In this document: in pieces, positions 28,095 through 60,960 of the stretch
Layout of the letters: each line of letters opens with the position of its first letter
Position numbering within the stretch: the stretch's first letter is position 1
Origin: Escherichia phage AV123
DNA length: 64,000 nt
Sequence record: OR352953.1
Direction: 5' to 3' (one strand)
The notes under the pieces: model-generated
Database searches by the model: none
What the model saw: only the letters and a program-made list of their open reading frames with translations
What the model was told of the DNA's origin: nothing
Made by a program: the position numbers and the translations under genes

Positions 28095-29255
28095 TTAGTA
28101 AGAACGACCACCAAACACATACTCTGTGTAGTTTTTACGTTCTTTGTTTTTAATAACAACTTCAATGTTGTTGCCTTTATCATCGGTGAACACAAAGTGA
28201 TAACCGTCACCACCCATTGTACGGATGTGTTTTTCATCATACATCAGCAAGATACGGTCTACACCCCAGTAGTAGTCACCTTCTTCATCTTTATCTTCTA
28301 CGGTAACGACTCCTTCCATTTCAGGAAGATGCTCTTCTCCTAGCTTATGGTCTACAGCTACAACATAACGATTACCGCTAAACAAACCTTGTGCTGTCAT
28401 ACCGTCAATATCGGTATCTGACGAAACATCTCCTGTACGATCTACACCGTTAACTTTCAGAAGTTTAACCTCTTTTGCAGCATAGCGGTGTTCAGTAATA
28501 CTGATACCCATCAATGCAAGTGCATCAGAGAATTTGTCATTAGGGTAACGGTTAAGTTCTTCTACTAATGACTGAACAATATCAAAGTTCAAATCCACGG
28601 AGAGATTATAAAGCGTTTCAAAATCTGGTAAGAAGGCTTTGTTCTCCAGATTTTTAGCCAGATAATCATCCATAGTAGCTTTAGGTAGTTTCTTATAGCT
28701 AAAACTGTAGAAAATACGGCTAGGACGATTACGCAAAAATTCTGATACATAACCATCATTTTTAGTCAATACAAACAGTTTGTCGTAGCCACCAACACCA
28801 TCCAACAGGGTAAGCAAACCATCTTGTGCATCTTTTTCAGCATACAGTTTATCAAATTCATCGATCATAATCATCACAGGTTGTGTGATTTTAGACATAA
28901 AATTGATAAAACCTTCGCCATTAAAAGCACTGCCGATAGAAATAGTAGGAATACCCATTTCACGAAGAGCAGAAGACAGCATTTTAGCTTGCAAAGTTTT
29001 ACCGCTACCTTTCGTACCCTCAAGGAGAACACCTGTGTTTTTACCTTTGCGGCTAAGGAACGTTTTGATAATACGTTCTGATTTATCATCAGTATCACCG
29101 TATGTTACTGAAGGCACTTCCATATCGTTTTTAGGATACAGGAAGAACTCACCACTTTGAGTAACACCTACACCAAAAGTTCCTGCTGGAATTTCTTCAA
29201 TATCTGTACCAGATTTCTGACGCAGGAAGATTTGATTGCCGAATACTGTAAACAT
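28095..29255 (-). CDS. P-loop NTPase (AAA-like), paralog of 43218..44345
   Basis: Walker A GTKGSGKT, Walker B MIMIDEFDK; aligns along its length with the + strand paralog. Confidence 0.65.
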   Translation of the reverse strand: MFTVFGNQIFLRQKSGTDIEEIPAGTFGVGVTQSGEFFLYPKNDMEVPSVTYGDTDDKSERIIKTFLSRKGKNTGVLLEGTKGSGKTLQAKMLSSALREMGIPTISIGSAFNGEGFINFMSKITQPVMIMIDEFDKLYAEKDAQDGLLTLLDGVGGYDKLFVLTKNDGYVSEFLRNRPSRIFYSFSYKKLPKATMDDYLAKNLENKAFLPDFETLYNLSVDLNFDIVQSLVEELNRYPNDKFSDALALMGISITEHRYAAKEVKLLKVNGVDRTGDVSSDTDIDGMTAQGLFSGNRYVVAVDHKLGEEHLPEMEGVVTVEDKDEEGDYYWGVDRILLMYDEKHIRTMGGDGYHFVFTDDKGNNIEVVIKNKERKNYTEYVFGGRSY

Positions 29256-29275
29256 AGTTTTCTCCTCTATTTAAT

Positions 29276-29746
29276 TTAGTCAGATTCCCAAATGTTGTCT
29301 TTCTTAACCCACATTCGTTGATTATCTGAACCTCTATAACGTTTCGTTGTTGGTTGATTCATATCATACTTACCATCTATCACTATGTCAACCAGTTTTT
29401 TAATTTTCTCTGGAATTTCTTCAAAAAGATATCCTGTATATAAGACAATATCTTTTTTGTTTCCAAAACAATCTCTTACCTTCTCAAGAACATACTCTAC
29501 AGTGTCAATGTTCTCTTTGTCAAGAGGTTCACCACCTAAAACTGTTAATCCTTTAATGAAAGGTCGAGATAAATCTTCCAAGATAAGATCTAATGTTTCA
29601 GCAGTGAACTCTTGTCCGTAGTTATACGACCAGGCTTTCTGGTTAAAGCAGCCACGGCAACCGTGGCTACAACCGCTCACCCACAAAGAGCATCTTACAC
29701 CGTCACCGTTGAGCATGTCAACAGGTTCATATCCGGCGTAATTCAA
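29276..29746 (-). CDS. nrdG: Anaerobic ribonucleotide reductase activating protein
   Basis: Radical-SAM CxxxCxxC cluster CSHGCRGC near N-terminus; 156 aa; directly downstream of nrdD with ATGA overlap. Confidence 0.85.
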   Translation of the reverse strand: MNYAGYEPVDMLNGDGVRCSLWVSGCSHGCRGCFNQKAWSYNYGQEFTAETLDLILEDLSRPFIKGLTVLGGEPLDKENIDTVEYVLEKVRDCFGNKKDIVLYTGYLFEEIPEKIKKLVDIVIDGKYDMNQPTTKRYRGSDNQRMWVKKDNIWESD

Positions 29747-31542
29747 AAGTGTTTCTCCCTTTCTAGTACCTCTTGCATTTTACCTTTATTATAAGGGCGA
29801 GAGTTAGGGGCAGAAAGGTATCCTGACACTCTTCTGATCACAGATATGGATTCTTCTTCATGATTACCGCAACTTGGACACTCGAAGCCTTTAGCTGTTG
29901 CCTTAAATTCACCATGAAAACCACATTTGAAACACTGATCTACAGGTTGGTTCACGCCAAAATAAGGAATTTTGTTGTAGGCATAATCTACAAGAGTTTC
30001 CAGTGCTTGCAAGTTATTTTTAAGGTTTGGTGTTTCTACATAACCTATGTTCCCACCATTACTAATTTGTGCAAAACCTTCCTCATAATCCCATTTTTGG
30101 AACGGGGTAGTGTGCATCCATACAGGTTGATGGAAAGAGTTTGTCAAGTAGTCACGATCAATAGAACCAGGATAGCGATCATTTAACGCTTTGGCAAATT
30201 TATAGCACAAGGATTCTGCTGGTGTTCCATACAAACTAAAAGCTAAACCAGAACGTTCTTTAAATGTGCAACAGATATCCTTCATATATTGAAGGATGTT
30301 TTTACCCATTGCTTTTGGATTGGTGTTATTTGGGTATAAAATCTCCATAGCTTCTGCTAAACCTACATAACCGATACTAATAGAGGCATAACCACCTTCA
30401 AATAGTTTACCAATCTCTTCATTAGCTTCTAGTCGAGCTAAAGCCCCTTCCATAAACAATGTAGGGTTTTGAGATGCTTTGGTATGTCTAATACGGTTAA
30501 CACGTAGCATATGTGCCTTATACGCCATCTCCATATGTTGTTCCAACAGTTCAGTAAATAAGATGCCCTTTTCACGGGACTCTGCTGCAATGATAGGTAA
30601 GTTTAAAGAAACTACGCCTAAGTTGAAACGACCATCATATTTTTCACCTTGCTCTGTTGCATAGTATGACAAGAAGCTACGGCAACCCATGCTTGTGACA
30701 CGACCATCTGAAGATCCTGTAACTTCTTTGTTTAAAGGTACAGAGATAAAATCAGGATAAATGCGTTCAGCACAACACTCCATTGCCAGTTGCTTCAAAT
30801 CATAGTTTGGATCGCCAGCTTTCATGTTAACACCATCTTCCAAGAAGAAGATAACTTTAGGAAACACAGGAGTTACCCTATCTTTTCCTAATCCTTGTTT
30901 GTGCACCATTAGGTAGTTTTTAGTGATCATTCTACCAAAAGCAGAGGTATCCAAACCTAAACTAATTGTTATAAAAGGTGACTGACCATTTACACTCATT
31001 AGGGTGTTCACCTGGTAGATTAAAGTTTGCATTGCATCGTAAACCTGTTTATCTACCATACGCATAGCAATATCATAATCGCCAACATCGGCATATATTT
31101 TGTTAAAACTTGCTTTAACGTATTGACTAAGCCCAGTATCAATATGTGCACAAGTTTGTCCACCATATTGGCTAGAAGCTACTGCTTGAATAATTTGAGT
31201 TAGGACAGTAGTTGCTACGCCAATAGATTTTGGTTTTTCAATATGTGCATTACCAATACGGAAACCGTTCTCAAGCATATCTTGGTAATTTACCAGGCAA
31301 CAATTAGTTAGAGGTGAGAGTAAATAATCTAAATCGTGAATGTGACCATACCCACTTTTATGCCATTCTGCTAGATCTTCCGGTAAAATATGGGTCATTG
31401 CCATGTGCTTGCTTAGGATACCTGCTAGTAAGTCTCGGTGAGTATTAACAATCATTGCAGGTTTGTTTGCATTTTCACGAGTAAATTCTTCGGATGTTTG
31501 TTCGAGGAATCCGATTACATCCTCATATAGTTTTTGGGTCAT
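29743..31542 (-). CDS. nrdD: Anaerobic ribonucleoside-triphosphate reductase
   Basis: C-terminal zinc ribbon CFKCG...CPSCG and glycyl-radical-like RVSGYL; start set at MTQKLY after GGAGGA. Confidence 0.85.
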   Translation of the reverse strand: MTQKLYEDVIGFLEQTSEEFTRENANKPAMIVNTHRDLLAGILSKHMAMTHILPEDLAEWHKSGYGHIHDLDYLLSPLTNCCLVNYQDMLENGFRIGNAHIEKPKSIGVATTVLTQIIQAVASSQYGGQTCAHIDTGLSQYVKASFNKIYADVGDYDIAMRMVDKQVYDAMQTLIYQVNTLMSVNGQSPFITISLGLDTSAFGRMITKNYLMVHKQGLGKDRVTPVFPKVIFFLEDGVNMKAGDPNYDLKQLAMECCAERIYPDFISVPLNKEVTGSSDGRVTSMGCRSFLSYYATEQGEKYDGRFNLGVVSLNLPIIAAESREKGILFTELLEQHMEMAYKAHMLRVNRIRHTKASQNPTLFMEGALARLEANEEIGKLFEGGYASISIGYVGLAEAMEILYPNNTNPKAMGKNILQYMKDICCTFKERSGLAFSLYGTPAESLCYKFAKALNDRYPGSIDRDYLTNSFHQPVWMHTTPFQKWDYEEGFAQISNGGNIGYVETPNLKNNLQALETLVDYAYNKIPYFGVNQPVDQCFKCGFHGEFKATAKGFECPSCGNHEEESISVIRRVSGYLSAPNSRPYNKGKMQEVLEREKHF

Positions 31543-39500: not shown

Positions 39501-39773
39501 TTACATAGGTACAACAGAATCTGTTTTGAAGTCGTACATATGATTTACACCTGTGATTTTTGACATAGAGATTGCACGTTTAGCACCTGCAATTACCTGG
39601 TCTGTCTTCTTAATCTCTTCACGGAACTTACGTACAGTTAAAGAGAAGAAACGATGATCCATCCATTGACGATTCACACGATCACGCTTGAAGTGACGGA
39701 AATCTTCAATCTGCTTATTGCGCAATCGGCGCAGTACATGCAATAGTTGATAGTAAGGGTGTTTATTTTTCAT
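39501..39773 (-). CDS. Hypothetical basic protein
   Basis: GGAGAA RBS. Confidence 0.45.
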   Translation of the reverse strand: MKNKHPYYQLLHVLRRLRNKQIEDFRHFKRDRVNRQWMDHRFFSLTVRKFREEIKKTDQVIAGAKRAISMSKITGVNHMYDFKTDSVVPM

Positions 39774-39776
39774 AAA

Positions 39777-40205
39777 TTATTCTCCAAATCGAAAATCGTC
39801 AATATCATCAAACCATACACAATGGCGAGTCCTTTCTTTTTCTGTTGCAGACATTGTTTCAACAGCTTTAGGACTAAGCACAACAGGAGTGTAACGAATA
39901 GGTCGTTCATAATAGTAGCCATACTTTTCTGTATTAGCTGCCTCAAAGACTTTACGGCGTTCTTCAAGATCTTCTATGGTGAATCCTACCATATAACCAT
40001 CATGTTTGCTACCCCATCCTTCCTCACTTTCAACAATCGGGATATAAAAGCCGTTACGCGTCCCTGACACTGGTTTTTCTTGAGCCTGAAGGCAAGCCTC
40101 CCATCCTGCTTTAAAGACGTTATAGAGCGATTTACGCACGTTATGAGTGCCGCTTTCGCTTGCTGGATAGAGTTCATTAAATTTGTCTTGAATTTGTTGT
40201 GTCAT
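39777..40205 (-). CDS. Hypothetical protein
   Basis: AAGGGGCG RBS. Confidence 0.5.
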   Translation of the reverse strand: MTQQIQDKFNELYPASESGTHNVRKSLYNVFKAGWEACLQAQEKPVSGTRNGFYIPIVESEEGWGSKHDGYMVGFTIEDLEERRKVFEAANTEKYGYYYERPIRYTPVVLSPKAVETMSATEKERTRHCVWFDDIDDFRFGE

Positions 40206-40348
40206 ACTCGCCCCTTAGTGATTATTTGACCAGCTAAACAAATAGCTTGTAGTACAATAAAGAAGTAGCCTAATTTTACACTACCTAATACCCAGAATGC
40301 AATGTTTGCAAACAAACAGAAAGCAATATTAAGTTTAAAGAATAACAT
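40202..40348 (-). CDS. Small hydrophobic ORF (48 aa), coupled
   Basis: GAAGGGG RBS; ATGA overlap with downstream gene. Confidence 0.3.
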   Translation of the reverse strand: MLFFKLNIAFCLFANIAFWVLGSVKLGYFFIVLQAICLAGQIITKGRV

Positions 40349-40549
40349 TTAATCCCCTTCATATTTAGGTAAAGGCATATATGCCACAATAGGAGGGTAA
40401 TCAAAGTGAAAATGATGGTTCACCACAATAATCTTACCAGACATACTTTTATGCACTTCACAATACCCTTTTTCACCATCTTCCATTACCACCACATACT
40501 CACCTAGTGGGATATCGTATGGATCTTCTACTTTTACCCATCCTGTCAT
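40349..40549 (-). CDS. Hypothetical protein
   Basis: GAGGAG RBS. Confidence 0.45.
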   Translation of the reverse strand: MTGWVKVEDPYDIPLGEYVVVMEDGEKGYCEVHKSMSGKIIVVNHHFHFDYPPIVAYMPLPKYEGD

Positions 40550-40698
40550 TTTGTAAACTCCTCATAGTAAGGTAAAGCCTTGATCAGTTGTTCTGAAGTG
40601 CCATTTTGCACCCACGTAACACCATTGTCAACAGAAACATACCCTTTTTTGTCAATAAATTTACGCAGACAACCAGTGAACTTATTTTTGTAGATCAT
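40546..40698 (-). CDS. Small ORF (50 aa), coupled
   Basis: ATGA overlaps at both ends; AAAGGAAAG upstream. Confidence 0.35.
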   Translation of the reverse strand: MIYKNKFTGCLRKFIDKKGYVSVDNGVTWVQNGTSEQLIKALPYYEEFTK

Positions 40699-40862
40699 TT
40701 CTTCTTTCCTTTTTTGATTACAGCCCCATCACTTCCTTGCCAAACTTCCGCTCTAAATTCCATCTCAAACCACTCACCACCGCAAAAACGGCTGTGTTCA
40801 ACACGTCTATCTTCCTTCATTGCTTCTTTAGCTTCGATAGAAGTTAGTTCGATGTTTTGCAT
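40695..40862 (-). CDS. Small ORF (55 aa), first gene of - strand block
   Basis: AAAGGAGAAAAG before ATG at 40862 (MQNIELTS...); track ORF 40695..41036 is an upstream extension. Confidence 0.4.
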   Translation of the reverse strand: MQNIELTSIEAKEAMKEDRRVEHSRFCGGEWFEMEFRAEVWQGSDGAVIKKGKKK

Positions 40863-40980
40863 TTGCTTTTCTCCTTTCATTTGGTATGCGCTAATCTTAA
40901 CAAAATAAAAATGTATGTCAATACTTGATTTGAAATTAGTTTCTGGTACTCTGTGTGTATCGTAACAAAAGAGGTTAGAT
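40863..40980. promoter_or_regulatory. Divergent promoter region at strand switch
   Basis: 118-bp AT-rich gap between divergently oriented first genes (- 40862, + 40981). Confidence 0.4.
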
Positions 40981-41271
40981 ATGAACATCACACTAGCAAC
41001 TAAGAATATTACAGAAACTTTCGATGGTTTTGGCATTATTATTGCTGTTCATGGGCATAACGAAAAATGGTTAGCCTCTTTTGAAGAGGACAAAGAACGC
41101 AATGTACGTTTGAATGCACCAATCAAAGTTTTACACCAGGTAGGTGAGAATAAGAAACAATGGAGATCATACAAAGAGTGGAACATTACAAACGAATTAA
41201 TACACAAACTTGACAAAGTGCTAAACATGTTCGACAATGCACCAAGCAGTGCAAAACGTGTTTTACTATAA
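40981..41271 (+). CDS. Hypothetical protein
   Basis: ORF with AGAGG RBS. Confidence 0.5.
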   Translation: MNITLATKNITETFDGFGIIIAVHGHNEKWLASFEEDKERNVRLNAPIKVLHQVGENKKQWRSYKEWNITNELIHKLDKVLNMFDNAPSSAKRVLL

Positions 41272-41282
41272 AGGAGAGTGAT

Positions 41283-41636
41283 ATGAAAATTGTACACGAT
41301 GAAATTCAATTTGAAGAGAGTGATCTTCTTGATCTGGATGTGACACTAAGTAAACTGATCTACAACGCACTTTCTGCATATCGTGCAAAAGTGATAGCCA
41401 CAAACAATGTTAAAATTCCTAGCGGGTTACTTCGTCGGATGTACCCACACGCTAAAGGTGACTATCTACCTTATATGGAAGAACGAGCAGCAGAACACTG
41501 GTTAGAAATTCTTGAAAAAATGGAGTCCTCTTTTAAGGATTCAACTCCACCTGAAGAAGTTAATGAAAAACAACGGCAAGAGCGTTTAGAAGGTCGTATT
41601 TTGTTTGCTAAGTATTTCCATAATTTGTGGAGCTAA
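41283..41636 (+). CDS. Hypothetical protein
   Basis: AAAGGAGAG RBS. Confidence 0.5.
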   Translation: MKIVHDEIQFEESDLLDLDVTLSKLIYNALSAYRAKVIATNNVKIPSGLLRRMYPHAKGDYLPYMEERAAEHWLEILEKMESSFKDSTPPEEVNEKQRQERLEGRILFAKYFHNLWS

Positions 41637-41969: not shown

Positions 41970-42308
41970 ATGTTTAGTAAAGAAATGAGAGAAGTAATTG
42001 CCACTTTGGTAGTTGATCATGGTGTTGAAGTTGAGCGTCACGTTTGGAACGATGAACCTCCTTTCTTCGATTTGGCATCACGAGCTAAAAGTCATATGCA
42101 CCTGCTGGAAGACGGTAATGAGTTTGTTCTCCGTATGCGTTATGATCGAGAGTTTCGAATTCCGCTTGACACTGAACCAGATGGTGTAGTAATGTGGTTG
42201 GCAGAACATTTCGCATACGATGCACTACATGGAAGAAGTTTTGGTAATGAGCGTTGGGATGCCATTTGTCGTAAGCATAATATTGAACCAGAGTACGGAG
42301 TTTTATAA
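41970..42308 (+). CDS. Hypothetical protein
   Basis: AGGAGGG RBS. Confidence 0.5.
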   Translation: MFSKEMREVIATLVVDHGVEVERHVWNDEPPFFDLASRAKSHMHLLEDGNEFVLRMRYDREFRIPLDTEPDGVVMWLAEHFAYDALHGRSFGNERWDAICRKHNIEPEYGVL

Positions 42309-42559
42309 TGTTAAGTATCAAACCTAAAATGATAACAGCAGATGAAGCAGACTTTATTTTCAAATGTGGACGTGTATGGAGAGAATTCACAAAAGGGAAT
42401 GAAGTGGTGGTTGTTGTCGAACACAAGATATCTATCCAGGATCTGTTTGGACAATATGTTGATGTTATTAAATTAGGTATTGACAAGGGTTTAGTTGAGG
42501 TGTTAACATTAGATCAAGTTGAAGCAGAGCACCTCGACAAAGTAGTGGTTGAATTTTAA
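42308..42559 (+). CDS. Hypothetical protein
   Basis: Coupled (TAATG). Confidence 0.45.
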   Translation: MLSIKPKMITADEADFIFKCGRVWREFTKGNEVVVVVEHKISIQDLFGQYVDVIKLGIDKGLVEVLTLDQVEAEHLDKVVVEF

Positions 42560-51747: not shown

Positions 51748-51838
51748 AGCTTATATAGAGGCTTGTTACCCATAGGCAATGGTAACGCCAGGATAAGCCT
51801 ATAAATCAACGTTAGACGGCTTTACAGGAGCTTTAAAA

Positions 51839-52021
51839 ATGAAATTAGACGAAATAAGCAAGGCACTAGCCCAGGGGCAAAGGTTATGCGCCCGATATCG
51901 TGATCAATATGGCTTCATAACTAGCGGCGTGATCCTGGGGATTGAAGGCAATAAGATTTTTATTGACACGTTGAAAAACGTTGTATATAGTGACAATATA
52001 ATCTCAATAAAACATATATGA
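51839..52021 (+). CDS. Hypothetical protein
   Basis: AGGAG RBS. Confidence 0.45.
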   Translation: MKLDEISKALAQGQRLCARYRDQYGFITSGVILGIEGNKIFIDTLKNVVYSDNIISIKHI

Positions 52022-52029
52022 GGCAAGAA

Positions 52030-52431
52030 ATGAAAAAATTATTGATCGCTGGTTTAATCTCTTTTGGCATGGTTGGAACATCTAGCGCGGCGATATCCTC
52101 CACAGTAGCAGAATTAAGCGCCGTTGATGCAATGGAAAACGTCATGCTTATTAATAATGCGATCCCCGATGAAATCATGGAGGATTCACACATGATCGCT
52201 TATGGTGCTGTTACACAACTAACGGCAAAAATAGATAAATCTATTGTTAACGGCTTAAATGAAGATGTGCCATGTGAAATTATTACCAGTGTGCTGACTA
52301 CTCAAAATTTTACGCCGTGGTTAAAAAGTATTCAAAAAGTACACAGTACAGCCGCAGATCGTAGCAATGAAAAACTAGTGTCAGCACTTGCAACGTATAC
52401 CCTAGCAAAATGCACCGAGATAAAAGATTGA
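52030..52431 (+). CDS. Secreted hypothetical protein
   Basis: Start at MKKLLIAG with GAGG RBS; signal peptide ending SSAAIS. Confidence 0.5.
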   Translation: MKKLLIAGLISFGMVGTSSAAISSTVAELSAVDAMENVMLINNAIPDEIMEDSHMIAYGAVTQLTAKIDKSIVNGLNEDVPCEIITSVLTTQNFTPWLKSIQKVHSTAADRSNEKLVSALATYTLAKCTEIKD

Positions 52432-52456
52432 CAACATAGAAAGCACGTTATAAGAT
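52428..52456 (+). promoter_or_regulatory. Sigma70-like promoter
   Basis: TTGACA 52428-52433, 17-bp spacer, TAAGAT 52451-52456. Confidence 0.5.
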
Positions 52457-52478
52457 ACACACAACAAAGGAGAACTAC

Positions 52479-52781
52479 ATGAACGGCATAGCTAAAACGT
52501 TTTTTCTTTTTTCTGGTGTAAATGATCCATCAATAAAAGTCGATAGTGTAAAAGAAAACAATACTATCACCGCTAAATTGTTTCAAGATGAAACAAATAA
52601 CGTGCTAATCATTAATCTTAAAGAAATAACGAAAGGTTATTATACTATTGCTTACCATGCAATCTATCGTGCTGGTACTAGTGAGGAAGTGCAAACAAGC
52701 AACAACGAAAGCGCGGCACTACCTGGTGATCTGGTGCTGGGCGTTATCAGTTTAATTGTCAATGATTTTTTTAAGGAGTAA
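52479..52781 (+). CDS. Hypothetical protein
   Basis: AAAGGAGAA RBS. Confidence 0.5.
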   Translation: MNGIAKTFFLFSGVNDPSIKVDSVKENNTITAKLFQDETNNVLIINLKEITKGYYTIAYHAIYRAGTSEEVQTSNNESAALPGDLVLGVISLIVNDFFKE

Positions 52782-52785
52782 AACC

Positions 52786-52881
52786 ATGCCCTATTTACAT
52801 TTATTTTTCGGTATCTTATTGACAGGATCTTTTTTCTTCTGTATGCTTGTTTCTATTGTAAACCACGTTTTAAGACATTAA
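52786..52881 (+). CDS. Hydrophobic micro-ORF (31 aa), tentative
   Basis: AAGGAG 7 nt upstream of ATG. Confidence 0.25.
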   Translation: MPYLHLFFGILLTGSFFFCMLVSIVNHVLRH

Positions 52882-52890
52882 GGAAACAGC

Positions 52891-53010
52891 ATGAAAATTA
52901 TTCCCGTACAATATAGCGTAATAAATCCAGCATACGAGGAAGGAAGGAAAACAAGCATGGCTTTATGTTGTATTGCTACTATAGCCATGTTGTTATACAT
53001 TGTGTTTTAA
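52891..53010 (+). CDS. Hydrophobic micro-ORF (39 aa), tentative
   Basis: AGGAAA RBS; C-terminal TM helix. Confidence 0.25.
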   Translation: MKIIPVQYSVINPAYEEGRKTSMALCCIATIAMLLYIVF

Positions 53011-53110
53011 TAGGTTTTATAGTTGTACGCTTTAAAGGCTTGACAATTTTTTGTTATGCTTTAAACTATATCTTGAAAACGGCAAAGGCCGCAAACAAAA
53101 GGGTAAAATT

Positions 53111-53434
53111 ATGAAATCTGTGATCGGTGTTTATTTGGATAACTCTGATTTTTTCTATCATCGCGCGCGTTTACTTGATGCTATTGAAATGATAGAATCA
53201 GGCTTTAAAGAGTATCGCCTTGCACATGATGACCTGGAAGCATTACAGGGCAATAGTGTTTTTACATTGCAAGCGAAAGCACTATGCAAAAGCCGGATCG
53301 AGATTGCAAGTAAAAAGATACAACGCGGCATGTCCTGGTTGCGCACCGCAGAAATCAACATGGGGCAATGGTACGGCGAAAACTTAGAAAATAAACGCAC
53401 TTTTGTAAATGTAGAAAATCTTAAAGATTATTGA
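53111..53434 (+). CDS. Hypothetical protein
   Basis: Start at MKSVIG; TTGACA at 53040-53045 upstream. Confidence 0.5.
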   Translation: MKSVIGVYLDNSDFFYHRARLLDAIEMIESGFKEYRLAHDDLEALQGNSVFTLQAKALCKSRIEIASKKIQRGMSWLRTAEINMGQWYGENLENKRTFVNVENLKDY

Positions 53435-53496
53435 TTGACAGCACACCTAACAGATAGTATATTGTATCTCATAGAGCGGGGAAATGGTTTCCCCGC
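53435..53496 (+). promoter_or_regulatory. Promoter plus leader hairpin
   Basis: TTGACA 53435-53440, TATATT, hairpin GCGGGGAAATGGTTTCCCCGC 53476-53496. Confidence 0.6.
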
Positions 53497-53516
53497 CTTA
53501 ACAGAAGAGATAAGCT

Positions 53517-53801
53517 ATGAAGATCACAAAAGCACTTTCCAACTATGCAGCACGTCGCGGATTATGTTTAACCGTTGAAAATTTAGGGAAAGAAGATTTT
53601 TTGTGCTTTTGGGAGCTTGAGAATGATAATGAGTGGATCTTCTCTTATTCTATCTGCGAAGATCAAAACGGTTGTTTATTAACCTGGCGCGGTAATATCT
53701 ATCTACCGGAAGAAATCAAAGAAGAATTACCAGGCACGATCATGACTGAGAAACAGCTTAAGGAAGTGATCAATTTTGTAGGGCAAAACATTAAAAAATA
53801 A
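53517..53801 (+). CDS. Hypothetical protein
   Basis: AGAAGAGA leader. Confidence 0.5.
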   Translation: MKITKALSNYAARRGLCLTVENLGKEDFLCFWELENDNEWIFSYSICEDQNGCLLTWRGNIYLPEEIKEELPGTIMTEKQLKEVINFVGQNIKK

Positions 53802-53802
53802 T

Positions 53803-53862
53803 TTGACACTAGGCAAACAACGTAGTAAAGTTTATCACATAGGGCGGGAAATGGTTTCCCGC
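53803..53862 (+). promoter_or_regulatory. Promoter plus leader hairpin
   Basis: TTGACA 53803-53808; hairpin GCGGGAAATGGTTTCCCGC 53844-53862. Confidence 0.55.
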
Positions 53863-53885
53863 TCACAACAGAAGAGAAACAAATC

Positions 53886-54056
53886 ATGATCCCAACTATG
53901 TTTTATGTATCGCGCAAAGGTCACAATATTTTTTGGTCTGAAGATTTAAATGAAGCCATGACGTTTGCCCGTGATCGTGTTGCTATCGGTGGCGTTAACA
54001 TTACTGTAACCGATGAAAACGGCATTGAATACTATAACGGCGACGATGAAGAGTAA
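53886..54056 (+). CDS. Small ORF (56 aa), not in track
   Basis: AGAAGAGAAA leader. Confidence 0.4.
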   Translation: MIPTMFYVSRKGHNIFWSEDLNEAMTFARDRVAIGGVNITVTDENGIEYYNGDDEE

Positions 54057-54063
54057 TTAATAA

Positions 54064-54084
54064 GGCGGGGGAGTATTCCCCGCC
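54064..54084 (+). promoter_or_regulatory. Intercistronic GC-rich hairpin without own -35/-10
   Basis: GGCGGGGGAGTATTCCCCGCC; no T-run after it. Confidence 0.4.
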
Positions 54085-54103
54085 GTCAATAAAGAGGTAA
54101 ATC

Positions 54104-54373
54104 ATGAAAATATCTTTGGACGTTGCAATCAAGGCCATTGAATCCGGTTACACCCTGGTAAAAGATGATAAGGCTAAAACCGTGCACCACGTTAACAAGG
54201 AAACAGGCGAAAGCATGATCACATATAAAACCGCCTATTTTCTCCAATCAGTAGCAGATCCGCGCGTACAACGCCAGGTTACGGCGGCTATTGCTAAAAA
54301 ATTATGTGCTTTACAGGGTACAAGTTTTAACGAGATCGCCCCGTGTTTTGACTGGTCGAGCTTGAAAAAATAG
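54104..54373 (+). CDS. Hypothetical protein
   Basis: AAAGAGG leader. Confidence 0.5.
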   Translation: MKISLDVAIKAIESGYTLVKDDKAKTVHHVNKETGESMITYKTAYFLQSVADPRVQRQVTAAIAKKLCALQGTSFNEIAPCFDWSSLKK

Positions 54374-54374
54374 T

Positions 54375-54430
54375 TTGACAACAATTATAAATCGGGTAGA
54401 ATGTATTTCGTAGGGCGGCAATAGTGCCGC
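54375..54430 (+). promoter_or_regulatory. Promoter plus leader hairpin
   Basis: TTGACA 54375-54380, TAGAAT, hairpin GCGGCAATAGTGCCGC 54415-54430. Confidence 0.55.
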
Positions 54431-54453
54431 TCACAACTAAAAGAGAAATCAGC

Positions 54454-54648
54454 ATGGCGCTTAAAAAACTAACAAGCAATACTCGTTGGGATGAAATCGA
54501 CGGAGAAGTTTACATTTTCGCCCGTAAACCAGGTGATCAAAAATGGTCTAAGGCTTTTACTTGCCACCCTGCAACAATAGACCTGATAAAAAGGGAAGGT
54601 TTACGTGAAGCGGTAGCAAGAAGTTTACTGATCCCTTATAAAAAATAG
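54454..54648 (+). CDS. Hypothetical protein
   Basis: Start at MALKKL after leader. Confidence 0.5.
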   Translation: MALKKLTSNTRWDEIDGEVYIFARKPGDQKWSKAFTCHPATIDLIKREGLREAVARSLLIPYKK

Positions 54649-54713
54649 TTTGACAATACGCGGTTATCTGGTAAAGTGTACGACATAGGGCGGGGCAATA
54701 AGGCAACGCCCAT
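54649..54713 (+). promoter_or_regulatory. Promoter plus degenerate leader hairpin
   Basis: TTGACA 54649-54654; GGGCG...CGCCC stem. Confidence 0.4.
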
Positions 54714-54729
54714 TAATGAGGGTAGAATC

Positions 54730-54834
54730 ATGTTAGAGAAAATTTTCACGGTTGTAATAGTTGGCCTGGCGTTATCGGTTGGATTGGTTGCAACTATGGC
54801 TAACATGATCCTATCTTCCCACGGTATTGGATAA
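54730..54834 (+). CDS. Hydrophobic micro-ORF (34 aa), tentative
   Basis: GAGGG leader; single TM helix. Confidence 0.3.
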   Translation: MLEKIFTVVIVGLALSVGLVATMANMILSSHGIG

Positions 54835-54844
54835 GGTGAATCAA

Positions 54845-55060
54845 ATGATCACGAATAAGACAGGTAAAACAGAATTTTTACGCGGCTTGCAAATAGGTAA
54901 ACCTGAGATCTGGCATTGCACTAAATCCGCGCATAATGAAATGAAAGATTTTACCGCTACTTTACAACGTGTTAAAATATCTATCACGCAGAAAAAAGCC
55001 TTGTTAGTAGTAGAAAACGAGATACCGCAAACCATTATTATTGTCGAGCGTACAGCATGA
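54845..55060 (+). CDS. Hypothetical protein
   Basis: AAGGTGA RBS before ATG 54845. Confidence 0.45.
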   Translation: MITNKTGKTEFLRGLQIGKPEIWHCTKSAHNEMKDFTATLQRVKISITQKKALLVVENEIPQTIIIVERTA

Positions 55061-55443
55061 AAACTGAAATCATTATTGAAATCATCAACGGTTATAAAGA
55101 AGCCTTTATTTTTGCTGAATCAGCCAGGGATCATGAAGGCTATTTTATTGATAACTTAGACGATTATGATTTTTCAGATCAAGCCCATCAGCGGATCATT
55201 CATGACGTAGCGGCTTATTGTGATGCCAATGATGCTGCTATCTCTGAGGCAATGAGCGACGGCGCTACAGCAAACCAGATCGGGAATGATTTACATTTTA
55301 CCCGTAACGGTCACGGCGTAGGCTTTTGGGATCGCCCTGAAATATACACTACTAACACCGCCAACCGCCTAACAAATGCAGCTAAATTAATGCCATCGGT
55401 GCATGCTTACATTGGTGAAGATAATTTGATTTATATTGAATAA
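55057..55443 (+). CDS. Hypothetical acidic protein
   Basis: ATGA coupling. Confidence 0.5.
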   Translation: MKTEIIIEIINGYKEAFIFAESARDHEGYFIDNLDDYDFSDQAHQRIIHDVAAYCDANDAAISEAMSDGATANQIGNDLHFTRNGHGVGFWDRPEIYTTNTANRLTNAAKLMPSVHAYIGEDNLIYIE

Positions 55444-55449
55444 AAAGTA

Positions 55450-55508
55450 TTGACACCGATCCCCAATATGTTATTATTTACCACGTAGGCGGGAAATGGT
55501 TTCCCGCC
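55450..55508 (+). promoter_or_regulatory. Promoter plus leader hairpin
   Basis: TTGACA 55450-55455; hairpin GGCGGGAAATGGTTTCCCGCC 55488-55508. Confidence 0.6.
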
Positions 55509-55531
55509 AGGTAATCAAAAAGGTAAATACT

Positions 55532-55921
55532 ATGCGCAACCTGGTTTCTGTTTCTAACGTTGAAAAATTCCAATCTTTACAGGGTATCGTTAACAACGTA
55601 GCGCCTTTTTTAGTCAATGGCTTGATTGCAAAGATGAAAAATAAACATCATGCGGCATGGTCTGCTTACTGCTTTGATAATGATGAAAAAGCGGCTGAAA
55701 TGATGTTAAATATGCTGTTAGACAGTGTAGAATCATCTTTACCGGAAAACATCGCAGAAGAGATCACCTATCGTTATAATATGGCGATCACTTACCAGGA
55801 GGTTGCGCAATTTAATATGATGGATGATGACGAACAACAGGATCAGGAAATGTTCTGGGAGTATGCAGATCGTCAATCGGCTTTTGATGAAAAGTTAGCG
55901 ATGTATTATAACGAATATTAA
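55532..55921 (+). CDS. Hypothetical acidic protein
   Basis: AAAAAGG leader then ATG 55532. Confidence 0.5.
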   Translation: MRNLVSVSNVEKFQSLQGIVNNVAPFLVNGLIAKMKNKHHAAWSAYCFDNDEKAAEMMLNMLLDSVESSLPENIAEEITYRYNMAITYQEVAQFNMMDDDEQQDQEMFWEYADRQSAFDEKLAMYYNEY

Positions 55922-55934
55922 TACACGGTAAAAG

Positions 55935-55962
55935 AAAGGGGCGCACTAAGCGCCCTTTTTTG
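55935..55962 (+). terminator. Hairpin terminator
   Basis: AAAGGGGCGCACTAAGCGCCCTTTTTTG. Confidence 0.7.
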
Positions 55963-56305
55963 TATTCTTTTTCACAATGGAAGCGACACGTAAAGAATAG
56001 GCGTAAAGGTGGCGTAAAACCATCTAAAACCGACTGTAACCGCTTAAACAAGGTAGGAATGATTAATCACCTTACCAGGATGAAAAAGCTGTTATAAAGC
56101 TATCTAGAGCGTTTAAAGCACATAGGAAATAATTTGCTTTTTATCTTGCCTTTTATCCTGCTTTTGATTATTATTATGGAACGGGCGGCACCTGGGGACA
56201 GGGGAAGATAATCACCGGAAGATCCCGCTATATATTAATAGCTAATACCTATCAAACAACAAAACATCAAAGGAATAAACTATCAAATCTTTACAATCCT
56301 ACCTA

Positions 56306-56365
56306 TTGACACCGGATCGCCCTTATACTAAGATGTATCACGTAAGGCGGGAAGTGGTTTCCCGC
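56306..56365 (+). promoter_or_regulatory. Promoter plus leader hairpin
   Basis: TTGACA 56306-56311, TAAGAT, hairpin GGCGGGAAGTGGTTTCCCGC. Confidence 0.55.
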
Positions 56366-56384
56366 TCAATATAGGAATCATATC

Positions 56385-56615
56385 ATGATCGAACAAATTA
56401 AACGCGCTGAAGCTATTAACGGCAATGTGATCTATTCTGTCAGCAATAACGAAAAAGGCGTACCCTATGCAGCGGTGATAGTACAGCCTGACGGTGATTA
56501 TTGGTTTACTGTATACGGATCTTATTCTTTTGGGCGTCCAGTACATGATAAAATTTTGAAAGTAGCTAATCCCACTGGGAAGAATATCACAGTAGAAAAA
56601 TTTTTTGAAAAATAA
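56385..56615 (+). CDS. Hypothetical protein
   Basis: AGGAAT leader. Confidence 0.5.
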   Translation: MIEQIKRAEAINGNVIYSVSNNEKGVPYAAVIVQPDGDYWFTVYGSYSFGRPVHDKILKVANPTGKNITVEKFFEK

Positions 56616-56690
56616 CTTGCTTTATAGCCTCTGTTAACTTATAGTTATCGTGTAGGGCAAACAATTTTAAACGGTAAACGAGGAATCACC

Positions 56691-57074
56691 ATGAGCAATA
56701 TCATCAACCTGGCGGCTACTGTAAACGGTAAAGACTTTAACGGCGCTGTAGACCGTGATCCTATGTGGTGCTTGTCAGTGTTTAAAGGTGACTTGGTTGA
56801 AGTTAGAACAACCGAAGGGTATAGCGATGATTATAAATGCGAGATCCATTTACACAACTGGTACACGGGTAAAACTTATGCACTGAATCATGCGTTTATC
56901 GGCAAGGTTGAATATAGAGAAATGATCGACGAAGAAACGGGGCAAGATTTTAGCGAGCATGTTTATATTCGTTCAGAAACATTAGCCGAACGTTTGATCG
57001 AGAAAATGAAAGCAAAAAATAAAATTAATTTATCTCATTGGATTGATATAACAAACGATCCAGCTTATCAGTAA
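56691..57074 (+). CDS. Hypothetical protein
   Basis: ACGAGGAA RBS. Confidence 0.5.
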   Translation: MSNIINLAATVNGKDFNGAVDRDPMWCLSVFKGDLVEVRTTEGYSDDYKCEIHLHNWYTGKTYALNHAFIGKVEYREMIDEETGQDFSEHVYIRSETLAERLIEKMKAKNKINLSHWIDITNDPAYQ

Positions 57075-57088
57075 ATAACATTTCAAAC

Positions 57089-57116
57089 AAGGGCGCTTAT
57101 TGCGCCCTTTCTTTTT
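57089..57116 (+). terminator. Hairpin terminator closing the island
   Basis: AAGGGCGCTTATTGCGCCCTTTCTTTTT. Confidence 0.7.
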
Positions 57117-57321
57117 ACCTAAATAAAGATGATAGCTTTTACCTATCAAAAACGTTCACCGAAAAAAGTGAATAGATCGCGGTATCGAGCTAATCAAGGA
57201 GCAGATGAACAACCATACCATGAAGATCATAAGGCGCTTACAACGTGTTTTAGACCGCTTATTTTTAATTTCTTCATGTAATTACCTGGCAAAAACAGCC
57301 TTTTTCTTGTCTTTCCTCTTA

Positions 57322-57397
57322 AATGATAATCATTCTTATTTATAGCTGATTATTTATGCAATAAATTGCATAATGCAATAATGAGAATCATTCTTAA
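57322..57397. promoter_or_regulatory. Fur-box-like sites flanking an 18-bp palindrome
   Basis: AATGATAATCATT at 57322-57334 (exact Fur-box core), TAATGAGAATCATTCTTA at 57378-57395, palindrome TATGCAATAAATTGCATA between them. Confidence 0.5.
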
Positions 57398-57689
57398 CTT
57401 AAGACCATCTAACCTATAAAATAATAAGTTATCTAACTAAATTAAAACTAATTATCTCACCTTTATTTATAACTTACTGTTACTATCTCATTGATAACAT
57501 TGTATTAAACAATAATAACTAATATAAATCATTACTAAGCTAAATATAATCTATCTAACCCTTAAAACTACAATTATAATCTATCGAATTGTTGCACAAA
57601 GTAACTATTAAATTGTTAGTAACATTACTAAATAATTCACATCCTATCTATTTATGATCTAATCTTTACCTTCCTATCTATTACTTAGA

Positions 57690-57737
57690 TAATCATTTCA
57701 TACAGTAACCATTTCATGTAGTAATCATTCCATACAA
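57690..57737. repeat. Three tandem 16-bp iteron-like repeats
   Basis: TAATCATTTCATACAG / TAACCATTTCATGTAG / TAATCATTCCATACAA. Confidence 0.55.
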
Positions 57738-58241
57738 TAACTATAACAAGAAATATAATTCGCAAGCGTATCATTAGCAGCCTATGCCGGACACATAGGC
57801 GGCTAATAATAACGCAACTACACACCCCACATAATAACCATCACCGATAGTTATTATTTGTGCTTATGTAGCTTGCAACAATTGCAAGCGCAACAATATA
57901 CTAGGGTATATTGTATCCCTTACATTGTTGCGGTGCGTTATTATTAGCTAATGTTTAGAACATTGGCTATAATATAAGCTATCCAATAATAAACATGGTG
58001 AATAATGACACTGATGATCATAATGCGCCACCCTCCAGGGGGCGCTATGTGAACACAAAGAAATCTTTCTTGTCAAGAAAAATATCACCATTATTGCGCA
58101 AAATTATTTATATCTGAATAGATGATTTTTCATACTATTGCCCCCTTGATTATTACCATTTGTTGAGCCTACTTTCTTAAAAGCGCAATAAAATAGAATT
58201 ATATTGATTTTTAGTCGGTTTTATAGTACAGAAAGTATGCA

Positions 58242-58455
58242 AATGATAATCATTATCAGCTATCTTCCACGGGTGGCACTATTTCACACCAGATCATTTC
58301 ATTTGGCAAGGTGTATATAGATGTTTAGACTTGCCAAGCCATTGATTTCCTTAGAATTTATCTGTTTTGTTGTGAGTAGTACCTTTCTTGCTTAGAAAAT
58401 AATCAAAAGTCTTATAAGTCATTGAATGATAATACAAATGATAATTATTCTCATT
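58242..58455. promoter_or_regulatory. Fur-box-like sites upstream of the 58.8-kb gene block
   Basis: AATGATAATCATTATC at 58242-58257 (16/16 to positions 4-19 of GATAATGATAATCATTATC); AATGATAATTATTCTCATT at 58437-58455. Confidence 0.5.
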
Positions 58456-58814
58456 GATATTTGAGGGGGACGGTCGGCAGAAATCGGGGGGTGCTGAAAA
58501 TCGCGTTAAGCACCTCTCGCAAGCGAGCAGTATTTTGCGGCAAGTTATTGATATTATTGACTTTACGCTTATGAAAAGGGGGTGTGTCGAAATAAATCGG
58601 GTATACCGGAAAATTTTTGTGGCATAGATATTTATTTGTCTATATTATGTACAAAGGGGTGTGTTAAAAATAATAGGTATATATAGAATAATTGATAGGG
58701 AATATCTATACTAATTCCTCCATTAATGATATTCCTATGCTACTGCTCTTGTAATAGATGAAAAGACGCTGTATGATGTGTGGCATGAAACGTAAACTTA
58801 TAAAGGAGTCTGAT

Positions 58815-59180
58815 ATGTGTGTTCCTCTTAGCAGTCCACTGCTGTTAGAATTTTACAAAGCATGGATGCAAGATCATTCCTCAATGCATCGTGAGAATGT
58901 TGGTTTGTGTATTTGCCTTATGGATTATCTGGCAACCACTATGTCAAAGAAAAAACCTACGCGAGAAGATATAGAACATTTCAAAATGGTTCGCAGTAAA
59001 ACGCTGGAAGAGATGAAATTGCAATTCACGTGTGCTGGGCTATCCTCCTTCCTGCCCTTTAATGATGATCTTCTGTGTTATGAAGATGAAGGTAAGAAAC
59101 ATTCTTGCCATACTAACCCAGGGAGATTGCAGTGGGTGAAAGACAGACTCGAAGATGCAAATAATGCTTGCATTGAATAG
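58815..59180 (+). CDS. Hypothetical protein, paralog family member 1
   Basis: AAGGAG RBS before ATG 58815; shares LLxFY, GLCxCL, LxPFN, RxQWVxDR blocks with 60961..61329 and 61953..62537. Confidence 0.5.
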   Translation: MCVPLSSPLLLEFYKAWMQDHSSMHRENVGLCICLMDYLATTMSKKKPTREDIEHFKMVRSKTLEEMKLQFTCAGLSSFLPFNDDLLCYEDEGKKHSCHTNPGRLQWVKDRLEDANNACIE

Positions 59181-59250
59181 AAATGCCTGTACACTGTGTT
59201 CCATAAGATATGCAATATCGCGCATAACAAACTACTAATGAGAGGTGTAA

Positions 59251-59568: not shown

Positions 59569-59569
59569 C

Positions 59570-59785: not shown

Positions 59786-59799
59786 AAGAGGAAAAGAAG

Positions 59800-59976: not shown

Positions 59977-59987
59977 GGAGTTGTGTA

Positions 59988-60951: not shown

Positions 60952-60960
60952 GGAGAAGTC

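Follow-up and report, generated by a model that had tools for sequence, protein, structure and literature searches.

Closely packed small genes of a phi92-like Escherichia phage appear to be exchangeable cassettes led by a probable remnant of a distantly Tad2-like domain

Introduction

Large lytic phages carry hyperplastic or mosaic regions of accessory genes, such as the early regions of T4-type phages, in which small open reading frames (ORFs) are exchangeable. Promoter stem-loop cassettes have been described as shuffling elements in T4-type phages. Small-ORF regions are also present in rV5-like and phi92-like myoviruses of the Vequintavirinae and Stephanstirmvirinae, with annotations available for phi92 (FR775895) and ECGD1 (KU522583), and rV5 is described as possessing 88 mainly small ORFs that are closely packed or overlapping, along with sigma-70-like promoters (PMC3606486). 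In bacterial and phage operons, genes can be translationally coupled by ATGA overlaps of stop and start codons. The overlap of four nucleotides is the most common overlap class in prokaryotes (PMC3887535). Another relevant system is Thoeris anti-defence 2 (Tad2; DUF2829, PF11195), represented by the gcADPR sponge of phage SPO1. The ligand pocket of Tad2 is formed by the β3–β4 loop and strand β4 (bioRxiv 10.1101/2023.05.01.538930).

Here we describe a chain of small genes in a 64,000-nucleotide stretch of Escherichia phage AV123 (OR352953.1; hereafter ‘the window’), which derives from a phi92-like myovirus (Justusliebigvirus) and is 99% identical to ECGD1. The chain is composed of the same genes as the rV5-like and phi92-like regions. 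Compared to the phi92-type arrangement, the window is of the ECGD1 type, in which ORF1 is truncated and the promoter segment is not inverted, and otherwise nothing essential differs. The locus resembles ATGA-coupled operons in its exact four-nucleotide overlaps and in the placement of Shine–Dalgarno (SD) sequences inside the upstream gene, but one of its four junctions is a TAA/ATG abutment, and coupling is proposed here from sequence. As with the T4-type regions, relatives of the window differ by whole-gene insertion, replacement and inversion at gene boundaries, whereas no element resembling a promoter stem-loop cassette was found at the window junctions. Finally, the family to which ORF1 belongs resembles Tad2 in profile and fold searches, although the E values against solved Tad2 structures are 0.2–1 and the window ORF1 corresponds to the first half of the domain.

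Results

Layout of the minus-strand genes

An earlier note on this DNA had pointed to four minus-strand micro-ORFs beside a strand switch, three of them below a 60-amino acid cutoff and all linked by ATGA overlaps. All of the coordinates proved to be right, and the chain continues into a fifth ORF (Table 1). The three short members are ORF1, ORF2 and ORF4, and the strand switch corresponds to a divergent intergenic region (40863–40980) that precedes the first plus-strand gene, which begins at 40981. The description of the junctions needed one amendment. ATGA overlaps are present at 40698–40695, 40549–40546 and 40205–40202, but at the ORF3/ORF4 junction (40351–40346) a TAA codon is followed directly by ATG with zero shared bases. 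All four junctions are nevertheless overlapping or abutting stop-start pairs on the same strand. ORF6, which starts three nucleotides past ORF5, is the final tightly packed gene and is followed by a gap of 164 nucleotides.

Table 1. Coordinates of the genes and sequence features discussed in the text.
Feature	Position	Strand	Description
ORF6	39501–39773	−	90 aa; ECGD1 gp216
ORF5	39777–40205	−	142 aa; ECGD1 gp217, phi92 gp210; joined to ORF4 by ATGA overlap
ORF4	40202–40348	−	48 aa; ECGD1 gp218, phi92 gp211
ORF3	40349–40549	−	66 aa; ECGD1 gp219, phi92 gp212, rV5 gp198 family
ORF2	40546–40698	−	50 aa; ECGD1 gp220, phi92 gp213
ORF1	40695–40862	−	55 aa; ECGD1 gp221
G-run (40724–40727) and A-run (40710–40715)	40710–40727	−	lengths vary among near-identical phages
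Segment inverted in phi92 and arall	40761–41631		from BLAST of window against phi92
Predicted sigma-70-type promoter of the leftward array	40894–40921	−	TTGACA, 16 nt, TAAGAT; TG before −10

The four ORFs are real genes, and dozens of phage genomes already list them as hypothetical proteins. Proteins exactly matching ORF1 through ORF4 exist in public databases, and annotations of the same ORFs are found in the records of ECGD1, PATM, phi92 and outra, among others. In ECGD1 all four have identical coordinates, whereas the phi92 counterparts in the chain begin with ORF2. Each of the four yields a significant PHROG profile match, in every case to a family that has no assigned function. A Pfam scan that covered these ORFs, their neighbors and longer relatives returned only DUF7325 and DUF7247 as significant families, both of them for neighboring or inserted genes, and Rfam at its gathering threshold returned zero family matches in the whole window.

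The claim that such phasing is unlikely to arise by chance holds up when ATG-initiated ORFs of at least 40 amino acids are compared with those in 200 dinucleotide-preserving shuffles, a test that rules chance out. The window contains 27 coupled junctions, versus 1.5 ± 1.3 in the shuffled sequences, and its longest chain is the one described here, with four junctions, whereas no shuffle produced more than two. When set against the gene packing of the phage itself, the clustering is only modest, as evident by the ECGD1 annotation, where 5 of 69 same-strand junctions are four-nucleotide overlaps and three of these five reside in the chain (permutation p = 0.036).

Signals for translation and transcription

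Neither of the two objections that the earlier note had anticipated, a lack of translation signal or a conserved plus-strand ORF in relatives, applies to the chain. Every start is preceded by an SD motif whose computed duplex with the anti-SD sequence ranges from −5.6 to −8.9 kcal/mol. ATGs across the whole window average −1.7, and just 12% of them reach −5 kcal/mol. The SD of each downstream gene is located within the coding sequence of the gene before it. Polymorphism in close relatives leans synonymous, with pN/pS values of 0.13–0.24 for ORF2, ORF4 (0.18; six synonymous and four non-synonymous changes) and ORF5 (0.24), and with just three changes in ORF3, although each gene contributes few codon changes (3 to 23). 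There is no conserved rival on the plus strand, where the sole long ORF (40606–40908; 100 amino acids) is broken in PATM and the corresponding region is absent from phi92.

A sigma-70-type promoter is predicted upstream of ORF1 and scores 10 of 12 in a consensus scan, with an extended −10 element. Such a scan finds fewer promoter-like sites in the window than in shuffled sequences (4 versus 7.1), and therefore our assignment relies on conservation. The window, phi92, arall, outra and Phapecoctavirus nepoznato all share TTGACA as the −35 element, the −10 element is either TAAGAT or TAATCT across the phages compared, and the promoter is retained in three lineages. Most likely, this candidate promoter drives leftward transcription of ORF1 through ORF6. 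A literature search found no transcriptome and no ribosome profiling study of phi92-like phages, and the sequence features lead us to suggest that the transcript would be made early and that ribosomes may couple translation of successive genes by re-initiation.

Gene exchange among related phages

Comparisons with other phages make it clear that the array is a mosaic of exchangeable cassettes. Phage 4MG (Vequintavirinae) preserves the gene order, with homologues of the ORF1 domain, ORF2 and ORF3 that each have a four-nucleotide overlap, and in KPP-1 a Tad2-like gene lies near ORF2 in a run of such overlaps. EmilieFrey, KMB37, arall and outra each carry an insertion of two or three genes at the exact boundary between ORF2 and ORF3. 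The insert junctions stay tight (−4 or 0) in three of these four phages, and arall has one gap of 11 nucleotides. ORF4 and ORF5 are both missing from nepoznato, and ORF4 is missing from Phapecoctavirus. ORF2 occurs in 121Q and LAPP1 with neither a Tad2-like gene nor ORF3 as a neighbor, and rV5, KP13-16 and DU_PP_V possess ORF3 and lack ORF2. Homology breakpoints at 40695 and about 40555 coincide with gene junctions.

The inversion seen in phi92 and arall takes in the first 34 codons of ORF1 and the divergent promoter region, together with a DUF7325 gene (40981–41271) and a gene for a 117-amino acid protein (41283–41636); in nepoznato this segment is oriented as in the window. We found no inverted repeat flanking the segment, and no specific shuffling element at the gene junctions, where the only common sequence is the SD together with ATGA.

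Conservation of the overlaps in related phages, which the earlier note had proposed as a check, is evident at most junctions and fails at one. The junctions between ORF2 and whichever gene comes next, between ORF3 and ORF4, and between ORF4 and ORF5 are kept, but the phasing of ORF1 and ORF2 varies with the lengths of two homopolymers near the 3′ end of ORF1. The ATGA overlap is produced by G4A6 in the window and ECGD1, and the frame is restored in outra and EC_OE_11 by an extra base at the G-run combined with A5. The G4A5 combination in PATM, PD06 and KMB37 yields a 59-amino acid ORF1 with a 17-nucleotide overlap, and G5A6 in EmilieFrey yields an ORF1–ORF2 fusion of 104 amino acids. Thus, the eight near-identical genomes include four with ATGA, three with the 17-nucleotide overlap and one with a fusion. 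Some of the homopolymer differences in public records could be sequencing errors. We also considered a programmed −1 frameshift at the A-run that would fuse ORF1 to ORF2. The in-frame sequence C AAA AAA G does not conform to the canonical X XXY YYZ heptamer, and for this reason we assign this reading a low probability.

ORF1 and its parent domain

Several observations indicate that ORF1 is probably a relic comprising the N-terminal half of a Tad2/DUF2829-like domain of ~63 amino acids. Only residues 1–35 match phrog_22208 and phrog_3474 (E = 4.5e-15). Against the family profile, ORF1 aligns at positions 21–53 alone (33 bits), whereas intact members align at positions 21–86 with 100–109 bits. 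Longer forms comprise 63 amino acids in 4MG, 129–153 in Phapecoctavirus and 183 in phi92 gp217, where the domain is joined to a homologue of window positions 41970–42308. Relative to the 147-amino acid form, ORF1 has been shortened by two in-frame deletions of 15 and about 74 codons, yet it retains the terminal KKGKKK. The first of these deletions is shared by P0015, a relative of 129 amino acids that is otherwise full length, and the short form of ORF1 is present in about 23 phage records. As read from alignments, four of seven nearly invariant positions of the wider family are gone, namely a Gly replaced by Asp in KEDRRV, a Glu and a Gly that were deleted with a hairpin, and a Trp replaced by Ala. 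The missing part may correspond roughly to the Tad2 pocket region, and the ancestral activity has probably been lost.

The start codon of ORF1 is preceded by a strong SD (AAGGAG; −8.7 kcal/mol). A longer version of 113 amino acids that begins at 41036, as annotated in KMB37, would cross the conserved promoter, reach into the divergent gene and start without an SD. We rejected this version because all lineages share the MQNI start that follows AAGGAG.

The relationship between the ORF1 family and Tad2/DUF2829 is suggested weakly but consistently by profile and fold searches. Both types of search give Tad2 proteins as the best matches among solved structures. With a model of the intact relative P0001 (pLDDT of about 80 for residues 10–70), the top three PDB matches are Tad2, with probabilities of 0.66–0.94, weak E values of 0.3–1.1 and target TM scores of 0.43–0.62, and searches of BFVD matched DUF2829/Tad2-like models at E values of 1.6e-3 to 1e-2. 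ORF1, nepoznato_174 and phi92 gp217 gave no match to PF11195 at E values up to 1 and hence fell short of the Pfam gathering score, and 17 of 119 distant representatives of the family match PF11195 weakly (best E = 5.8e-4). A library of 1.84 billion proteins contains 366 cluster representatives of the parent domain, which carries no Pfam annotation and occurs alone, extended by a basic tail or in fusions with other small proteins. A word-indexed protein search with the ORF1 family recovered close relatives only, and there is no second Tad2-like copy within the 64-kb window.

ORF2 through ORF6

ORF2 and ORF3 are widespread. ORF2 is a small, basic, soluble protein (phrog_2381, E = 9e-12) that was detected by tblastn in 224 phage records down to about 53% identity, including those of 121Q-like jumbo phages, Klebsiella Mydovirus and an Acinetobacter phage. 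The codons for its conserved C-terminal Y-E-E (TATGAGGAG) constitute the SD of whichever gene comes next. ORF3 is a small, acidic, all-beta protein (PHROG 7252, E = 1.2e-35) present in 269 phage records down to about 37% identity. A word-indexed search with ORF3 gave 2 matches, and a profile of diverse homologues was needed to obtain 35; a scan of IMG/VR gave two loci only, one of which is 100% identical to the window. For ORF3, the name DUF551 comes solely from the UniRef labels of near-identical relatives, and hmmscan with ORF3 and 31 relatives gave no match to this family at E values up to 1.

ORF4 is the most thinly supported of the four genes, in that it is nearly restricted to one genus (55 Justusliebigvirus records at 93% identity or higher), although its polymorphism is biased toward synonymous changes. 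It encodes a hydrophobic peptide (phrog_27111, E = 9.8e-36; Kyte–Doolittle GRAVY 1.47) with hydrophobic stretches at about residues 1–24 and 23–44, and may be a membrane peptide with two segments. A weak counterpart of 43 amino acids follows the ORF3 homologue of Klebsiella phage KP13-16 (E = 7e-4). The same phage carries a protein with 48% identity to ORF5 (phrog_25627, E = 2e-99) in the equivalent position, and another with 55% identity to ORF6, which matches phrog_14778.

Discussion

We consider it likely that the chain is the promoter-proximal part of an ordinary polycistronic array of independent small accessory genes that share one promoter and are tightly packed. The host-type sigma-70 promoter would give rise to a leftward transcript from ORF1 through ORF6. 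With each SD residing in the 3′ end of the preceding gene, and each start codon overlapping or abutting the prior stop codon, a terminating ribosome could re-initiate on the next gene without any non-coding DNA being spent. The exact phasing of the genes would then be a consequence of tight packing. The genes themselves would be independent, swappable cassettes rather than parts of one machine. Because of their position, size and variability, and given the Tad2-like ancestry of ORF1, they are most likely dispensable early genes for host takeover or anti-defence.

Some or all of these ORFs, which are very short, match no Pfam family and lie opposite an antisense ORF of 100 amino acids, might instead have opened by chance in AT-rich DNA between genes, or the true gene could be the one on the plus strand. 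This is very improbable, given the results of the shuffle test, the SD at every start, the PHROG matches, protein conservation at low DNA identity, and an antisense ORF that is broken in PATM and lies in a region rearranged in phi92; for ORF2 and ORF3 the comparative data already refute it. A more serious proposal is that the chain encodes one multi-subunit module, such as an anti-defence or takeover complex, whose coupled starts and stops would ensure equimolar production. The order and overlaps preserved in 4MG, which belongs to another subfamily, are consistent with this proposal, as are the proximity of the Tad2-like gene and ORF2 in KPP-1 and the clustering of ATGA overlaps here compared to elsewhere in the genome (p = 0.036). 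However, unrelated genes separate ORF2 from ORF3 in close relatives, both proteins occur without their partners (ORF2 in 121Q and LAPP1; ORF3 in rV5, KP13-16 and DU_PP_V), the phi92 inversion took ORF1 out of the chain, and Phapecoctavirus does without ORF4. We therefore regard a single module as quite improbable.

The status of ORF1 is less settled. It might be a working gene under selection, either as a minimal Tad2-like protein or as a newly functional protein of 55 amino acids. Its SD context is strong, its place is proximal to the promoter, the basic end is retained and the short form recurs in about 23 records. Since both deletions are in frame and the first is also found in P0015, ORF1 could still be a functional mini-protein. 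We judge this to be unlikely, though less so than the alternatives above, as ORF1 matches only half of the domain profile, has lost more than half of the nearly invariant positions (four of seven) and, if our mapping onto Tad2 is correct, lacks roughly the part that forms the pocket (β3–β4 loop and β4). Moreover, its 3′ tail is frameshifted in four of eight near-identical genomes. A bolder and somewhat less probable reading is that the ~63-amino acid domain is an unrecognised branch of Tad2-like sponges, that the trio of ORF1, ORF2 and ORF3 is an anti-defence locus, that the G- and A-runs toggle the ORF1–ORF2 fusion, and that the window copy has decayed.

Returning to the array of independent accessory genes that we favor, the locus is minor as a discovery, since the genes have been deposited and four-nucleotide overlaps are standard phage packing. 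It does illustrate that a 60-amino acid ORF cutoff misses real, conserved phage genes, as three of the four genes here fall below this limit. It is also a clean example of cassette mosaicism, in which whole genes enter one junction while the joint of SD and ATGA is retained. The lead worth keeping is the ancestry of ORF1 in an unannotated and distantly Tad2-like family. The intact versions carried by 4MG, Phapecoctavirus and phi92 would be cheap candidates in a search for anti-defence proteins. If the bolder reading were true, a widespread branch of immune-signal sponges would exist in enterobacterial myoviruses, and the trio would have been kept in two phage subfamilies.

Organization of the small-gene array

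The four consecutive minus-strand ORFs described in the earlier note are confirmed in the sequence and run directly into a fifth ORF at 40205 (see the table). The successive ATGA overlaps that had been reported hold for three junctions but not for ORF3/ORF4, where TAA is followed by ATG with zero shared bases. The chain does lie at a strand switch: beyond the intergenic region 40863-40980, a plus-strand gene begins at 40981.

Features of the array and its variants (window coordinates unless a relative's locus is named)
Feature	Coordinates	Strand	Description
ORF1	40862-40695	-	55 aa
ORF2	40698-40546	-	50 aa
ORF3	40549-40349	-	66 aa
ORF4	40348-40202	-	48 aa
ORF5	40205-39777	-	142 aa; entered directly from ORF4
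ORF6	39773-39501	-	90 aa; begins 3 nt past ORF5
Predicted sigma-70-type promoter	40921-40894	-	TTGACA, 16 nt, TAAGAT with TG
ORF2/ORF3 insertion site	40546-40563; L007 1197-2040, L014 947-1470, L015 947-1470, L016 1612-2120		Relatives outra, EmilieFrey, KMB37, arall
ORF1 form, 55 aa			ATGA overlap with ORF2; window, ECGD1, outra, EC_OE_11
ORF1 form, 59 aa			17-nt overlap with ORF2; PATM, PD06, KMB37
ORF1 form, 104 aa			In-frame fusion to ORF2; EmilieFrey

That exact phasing over four junctions is improbable by chance is borne out by simulation. When ATG-initiated ORFs with a minimum length of 40 aa are considered, 27 junctions in the window are overlaps or abutments, versus 1.5 ± 1.3 in 200 dinucleotide-preserving shuffles, and the four-junction chain is the window maximum, whereas no shuffle exceeded two. 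Measured against the phage's own gene packing, the clustering effect is milder: in the annotation of phage ECGD1 over the homologous 47.6 kb, 4-nt overlaps account for 5 of 69 same-strand junctions, and three of these five fall in the ORF1-ORF5 chain (permutation p = 0.036). Overlaps of 4 nt are the most frequent class in prokaryotes, and they are partly reproduced by simulation with no selective advantage (PMC3887535). More ATGA-coupled small-ORF pairs occur on the plus strand at 51800-61000 (starts 52018, 53111, 55057 and 60652), and therefore the same packing style recurs in the genome's other small-gene arrays.

Signs of expression and coding

The earlier note's reading of these ORFs as real micro-genes is supported by Shine-Dalgarno (SD) sequences at all starts, the conservation of ORF2 and ORF3, and polymorphism that leans synonymous. 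Complementarity to the anti-SD at each start is worth -5.6 to -8.9 kcal/mol, compared with a mean of -1.7 across the window's 2362 ATGs. Among nine close relatives, polymorphism is sparse and pN/pS is 0.13 for ORF2, 0.18 for ORF4 and 0.24 for ORF5; the value of 0.49 for ORF3 derives from just three changes. A conserved plus-strand ORF, which the earlier note had named as counter-evidence, was not found, since the sole long antisense ORF (40606-40908) lacks conservation. The -35 element of the predicted promoter is unchanged in the window, phi92, arall, outra and the Phapecoctavirus outgroup nepoznato. Because a literature search found no transcriptomic or ribosome-profiling studies of phi92-like phages, early timing and actual ribosome re-initiation are features of the array that we infer.

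Conserved and unstable junctions

The junctions after ORF2, at ORF3/ORF4 and at ORF4/ORF5 are conserved in relatives, but the ORF1/ORF2 junction is variable. In all Justusliebigvirus genomes examined, ORF3 abuts ORF4 and ORF4 joins ORF5 through ATGA. The junction 3′ of ORF2 is always -4 or 0, independent of the next gene. The SD of that next gene (GAGGAG) is encoded by the conserved C-terminal Tyr-Glu-Glu codons of ORF2. Phage 4MG, from another subfamily (Vequintavirinae), carries in the same order a 63-aa ORF1-type gene and homologues of ORF2 (62% identity) and ORF3 (40%), each with a 4-nt overlap.

Genomes sharing more than 98% identity differ in the lengths of a G-run (40724-40727) and an A-run (40710-40715) at the 3′ end of ORF1, and four length combinations yield 55-aa, 59-aa or ORF1-ORF2 fused products. 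Genuine slippage or relaxed selection could account for these variants, as could sequencing error, which may indeed explain some of them.

ORF1 resembles half of a Tad2-like domain

ORF1 matches its own PHROG families only over residues 1-35. Intact relatives are 63 aa long in 4MG and KPP-1; those of Phapecoctavirus (129-153 aa) have a helical region as well as a basic KGKGHNKLKKGKKK tail, and phi92 has the fused form described below. Compared with a 147-aa form, ORF1 lacks a 15-residue hairpin, a deletion shared with the 129-aa relative P0015, and about 74 more codons, with the terminal KKGKKK retained; both deletions are in frame. Against a wider-family profile, intact members reach 100-109 bits across positions 21-86, and ORF1 reaches 33 bits across positions 21-53 only. 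No second copy of the domain was found elsewhere within the 64-kb window.

The best PDB match of the family sequence profile is SptTad2 (8wjd; E 0.19, two collinear stretches), a Thoeris anti-defence 2 protein. When the 147-aa relative is modelled with AlphaFold2 (pLDDT about 80, residues 10-70), the three best Foldseek hits in the PDB come from SPO1 Tad2 and SptTad2 (probability 0.66-0.94), and the model also matches BFVD entries named DUF2829 or Thoeris anti-defence 2-like (E 1.6e-3 to 1e-2). An exhaustive HMMER search gathered 366 cluster representatives of the family; 17 of the 119 scanned matched PF11195 (Tad2-like; E ≤ 0.01), and no other family recurred to a similar extent. These independent profile, fold and Pfam results all hint at a place near Tad2. 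Scanned directly against Pfam, ORF1 and its long relatives did not match PF11195, and therefore the proteins are not formally classed as Tad2-like. ORF1 appears to be one half, now decayed, of a domain distantly like Tad2. Tad2 itself forms a helix-plus-beta-sheet tetramer and sequesters gcADPR; its pocket involves strand beta4 and the beta3-beta4 loop (bioRxiv 10.1101/2023.05.01.538930), and the part missing from ORF1 would roughly correspond to this region.

A mosaic of exchangeable cassettes

Homologues of ORF3 are present in 269 phage records, with identity as low as 37%, and include rV5 gp198, 4MG gp094 and one in a Pectobacterium T5-like phage. The basic, soluble ORF2 product has homologues in 224 records, among them 121Q-like jumbo phages, Klebsiella Mydovirus and one Acinetobacter phage; no structural or family lead was obtained for it. 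More distant phages carry ORF2 without ORF3 and ORF3 without ORF2, which argues against an obligatory complex. The strongly hydrophobic, two-segment ORF4 product is confined to 55 Justusliebigvirus records, apart from a weak 43-aa hydrophobic counterpart that Klebsiella phage KP13-16 carries at the same position. Phapecoctavirus genomes have homologues of ORF1, ORF2 and ORF3 and lack ORF4 and ORF5.

The ORF2/ORF3 junction is an insertion hot spot for unrelated small genes: EmilieFrey, KMB37 and arall carry two additional genes (85 and 89 aa) precisely there, and outra carries three, including one for a 107-aa DUF7247 protein. Homology breaks off at gene boundaries (40695 and about 40555), and the array is a mosaic of exchangeable cassettes.

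Compared with the window, ECGD1 and nepoznato, phi92 and arall carry segment 40761-41631 in inverted orientation. The segment comprises ORF1 codons 1-34, the divergent promoter region and two genes (one DUF7325, one of 117 aa). The inversion places the promoter region and those 34 codons on the opposite side, and through it an ORF1-type Tad2-like domain is joined in frame with a homologue of 41970-42308 in phi92 gp217 (183 aa). A search for inverted repeats flanking the segment found none.

Other observations in the window

In ECGD1 (127935-130024), the anaerobic ribonucleotide reductase gene nrdD is annotated as two pieces (gp200 and gp201) joined across a gap of about 280 nt, which suggests an intervening sequence in its window homologue (about 28400-30500), where Rfam gave no family at the gathering threshold. 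Phages of subfamily Stephanstirmvirinae reportedly carry more than 10 tRNA genes. Since Rfam found no family, tRNA included, at gathering score over positions 1-64000, these genes must lie outside the 64-kb stretch. The 83-aa plus-strand ORF at 42308-42559, annotated in ECGD1 and phi92 as a ‘potential large ribosomal subunit protein’, matches solely phrog_4868 (unknown function).

Relation to existing annotation

Across the region, identity to Enterobacteria phage ECGD1 is 99.1%, and nearly all of the 123 matching phage records belong to Justusliebigvirus or Phapecoctavirus (Stephanstirmvirinae). The ORF1-ORF4 array is already known from public records: ECGD1 gp221, gp220, gp219 and gp218 have identical boundaries and are labelled hypothetical proteins, phi92 gp213-gp211 correspond to ORF2-ORF4 and are annotated with ribosome-binding sites, and NCBI and UniRef contain the exact protein sequences of all four. 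Each of the four matches PHROG families of unknown function, and a Pfam scan matched no family to any of them. The equivalent region of rV5 was described as dozens of mostly small, tightly packed or overlapping ORFs (PMC3606486). The array is an ordinary promoter-proximal set of small accessory genes, with the usual SD-plus-ATGA packing, in a well-sampled phage group. What is new is the recognition of ORF1 as an apparently decayed, distantly Tad2-like half-domain, the construction of the array from exchangeable cassettes, and the instability of its first junction among near-identical genomes.
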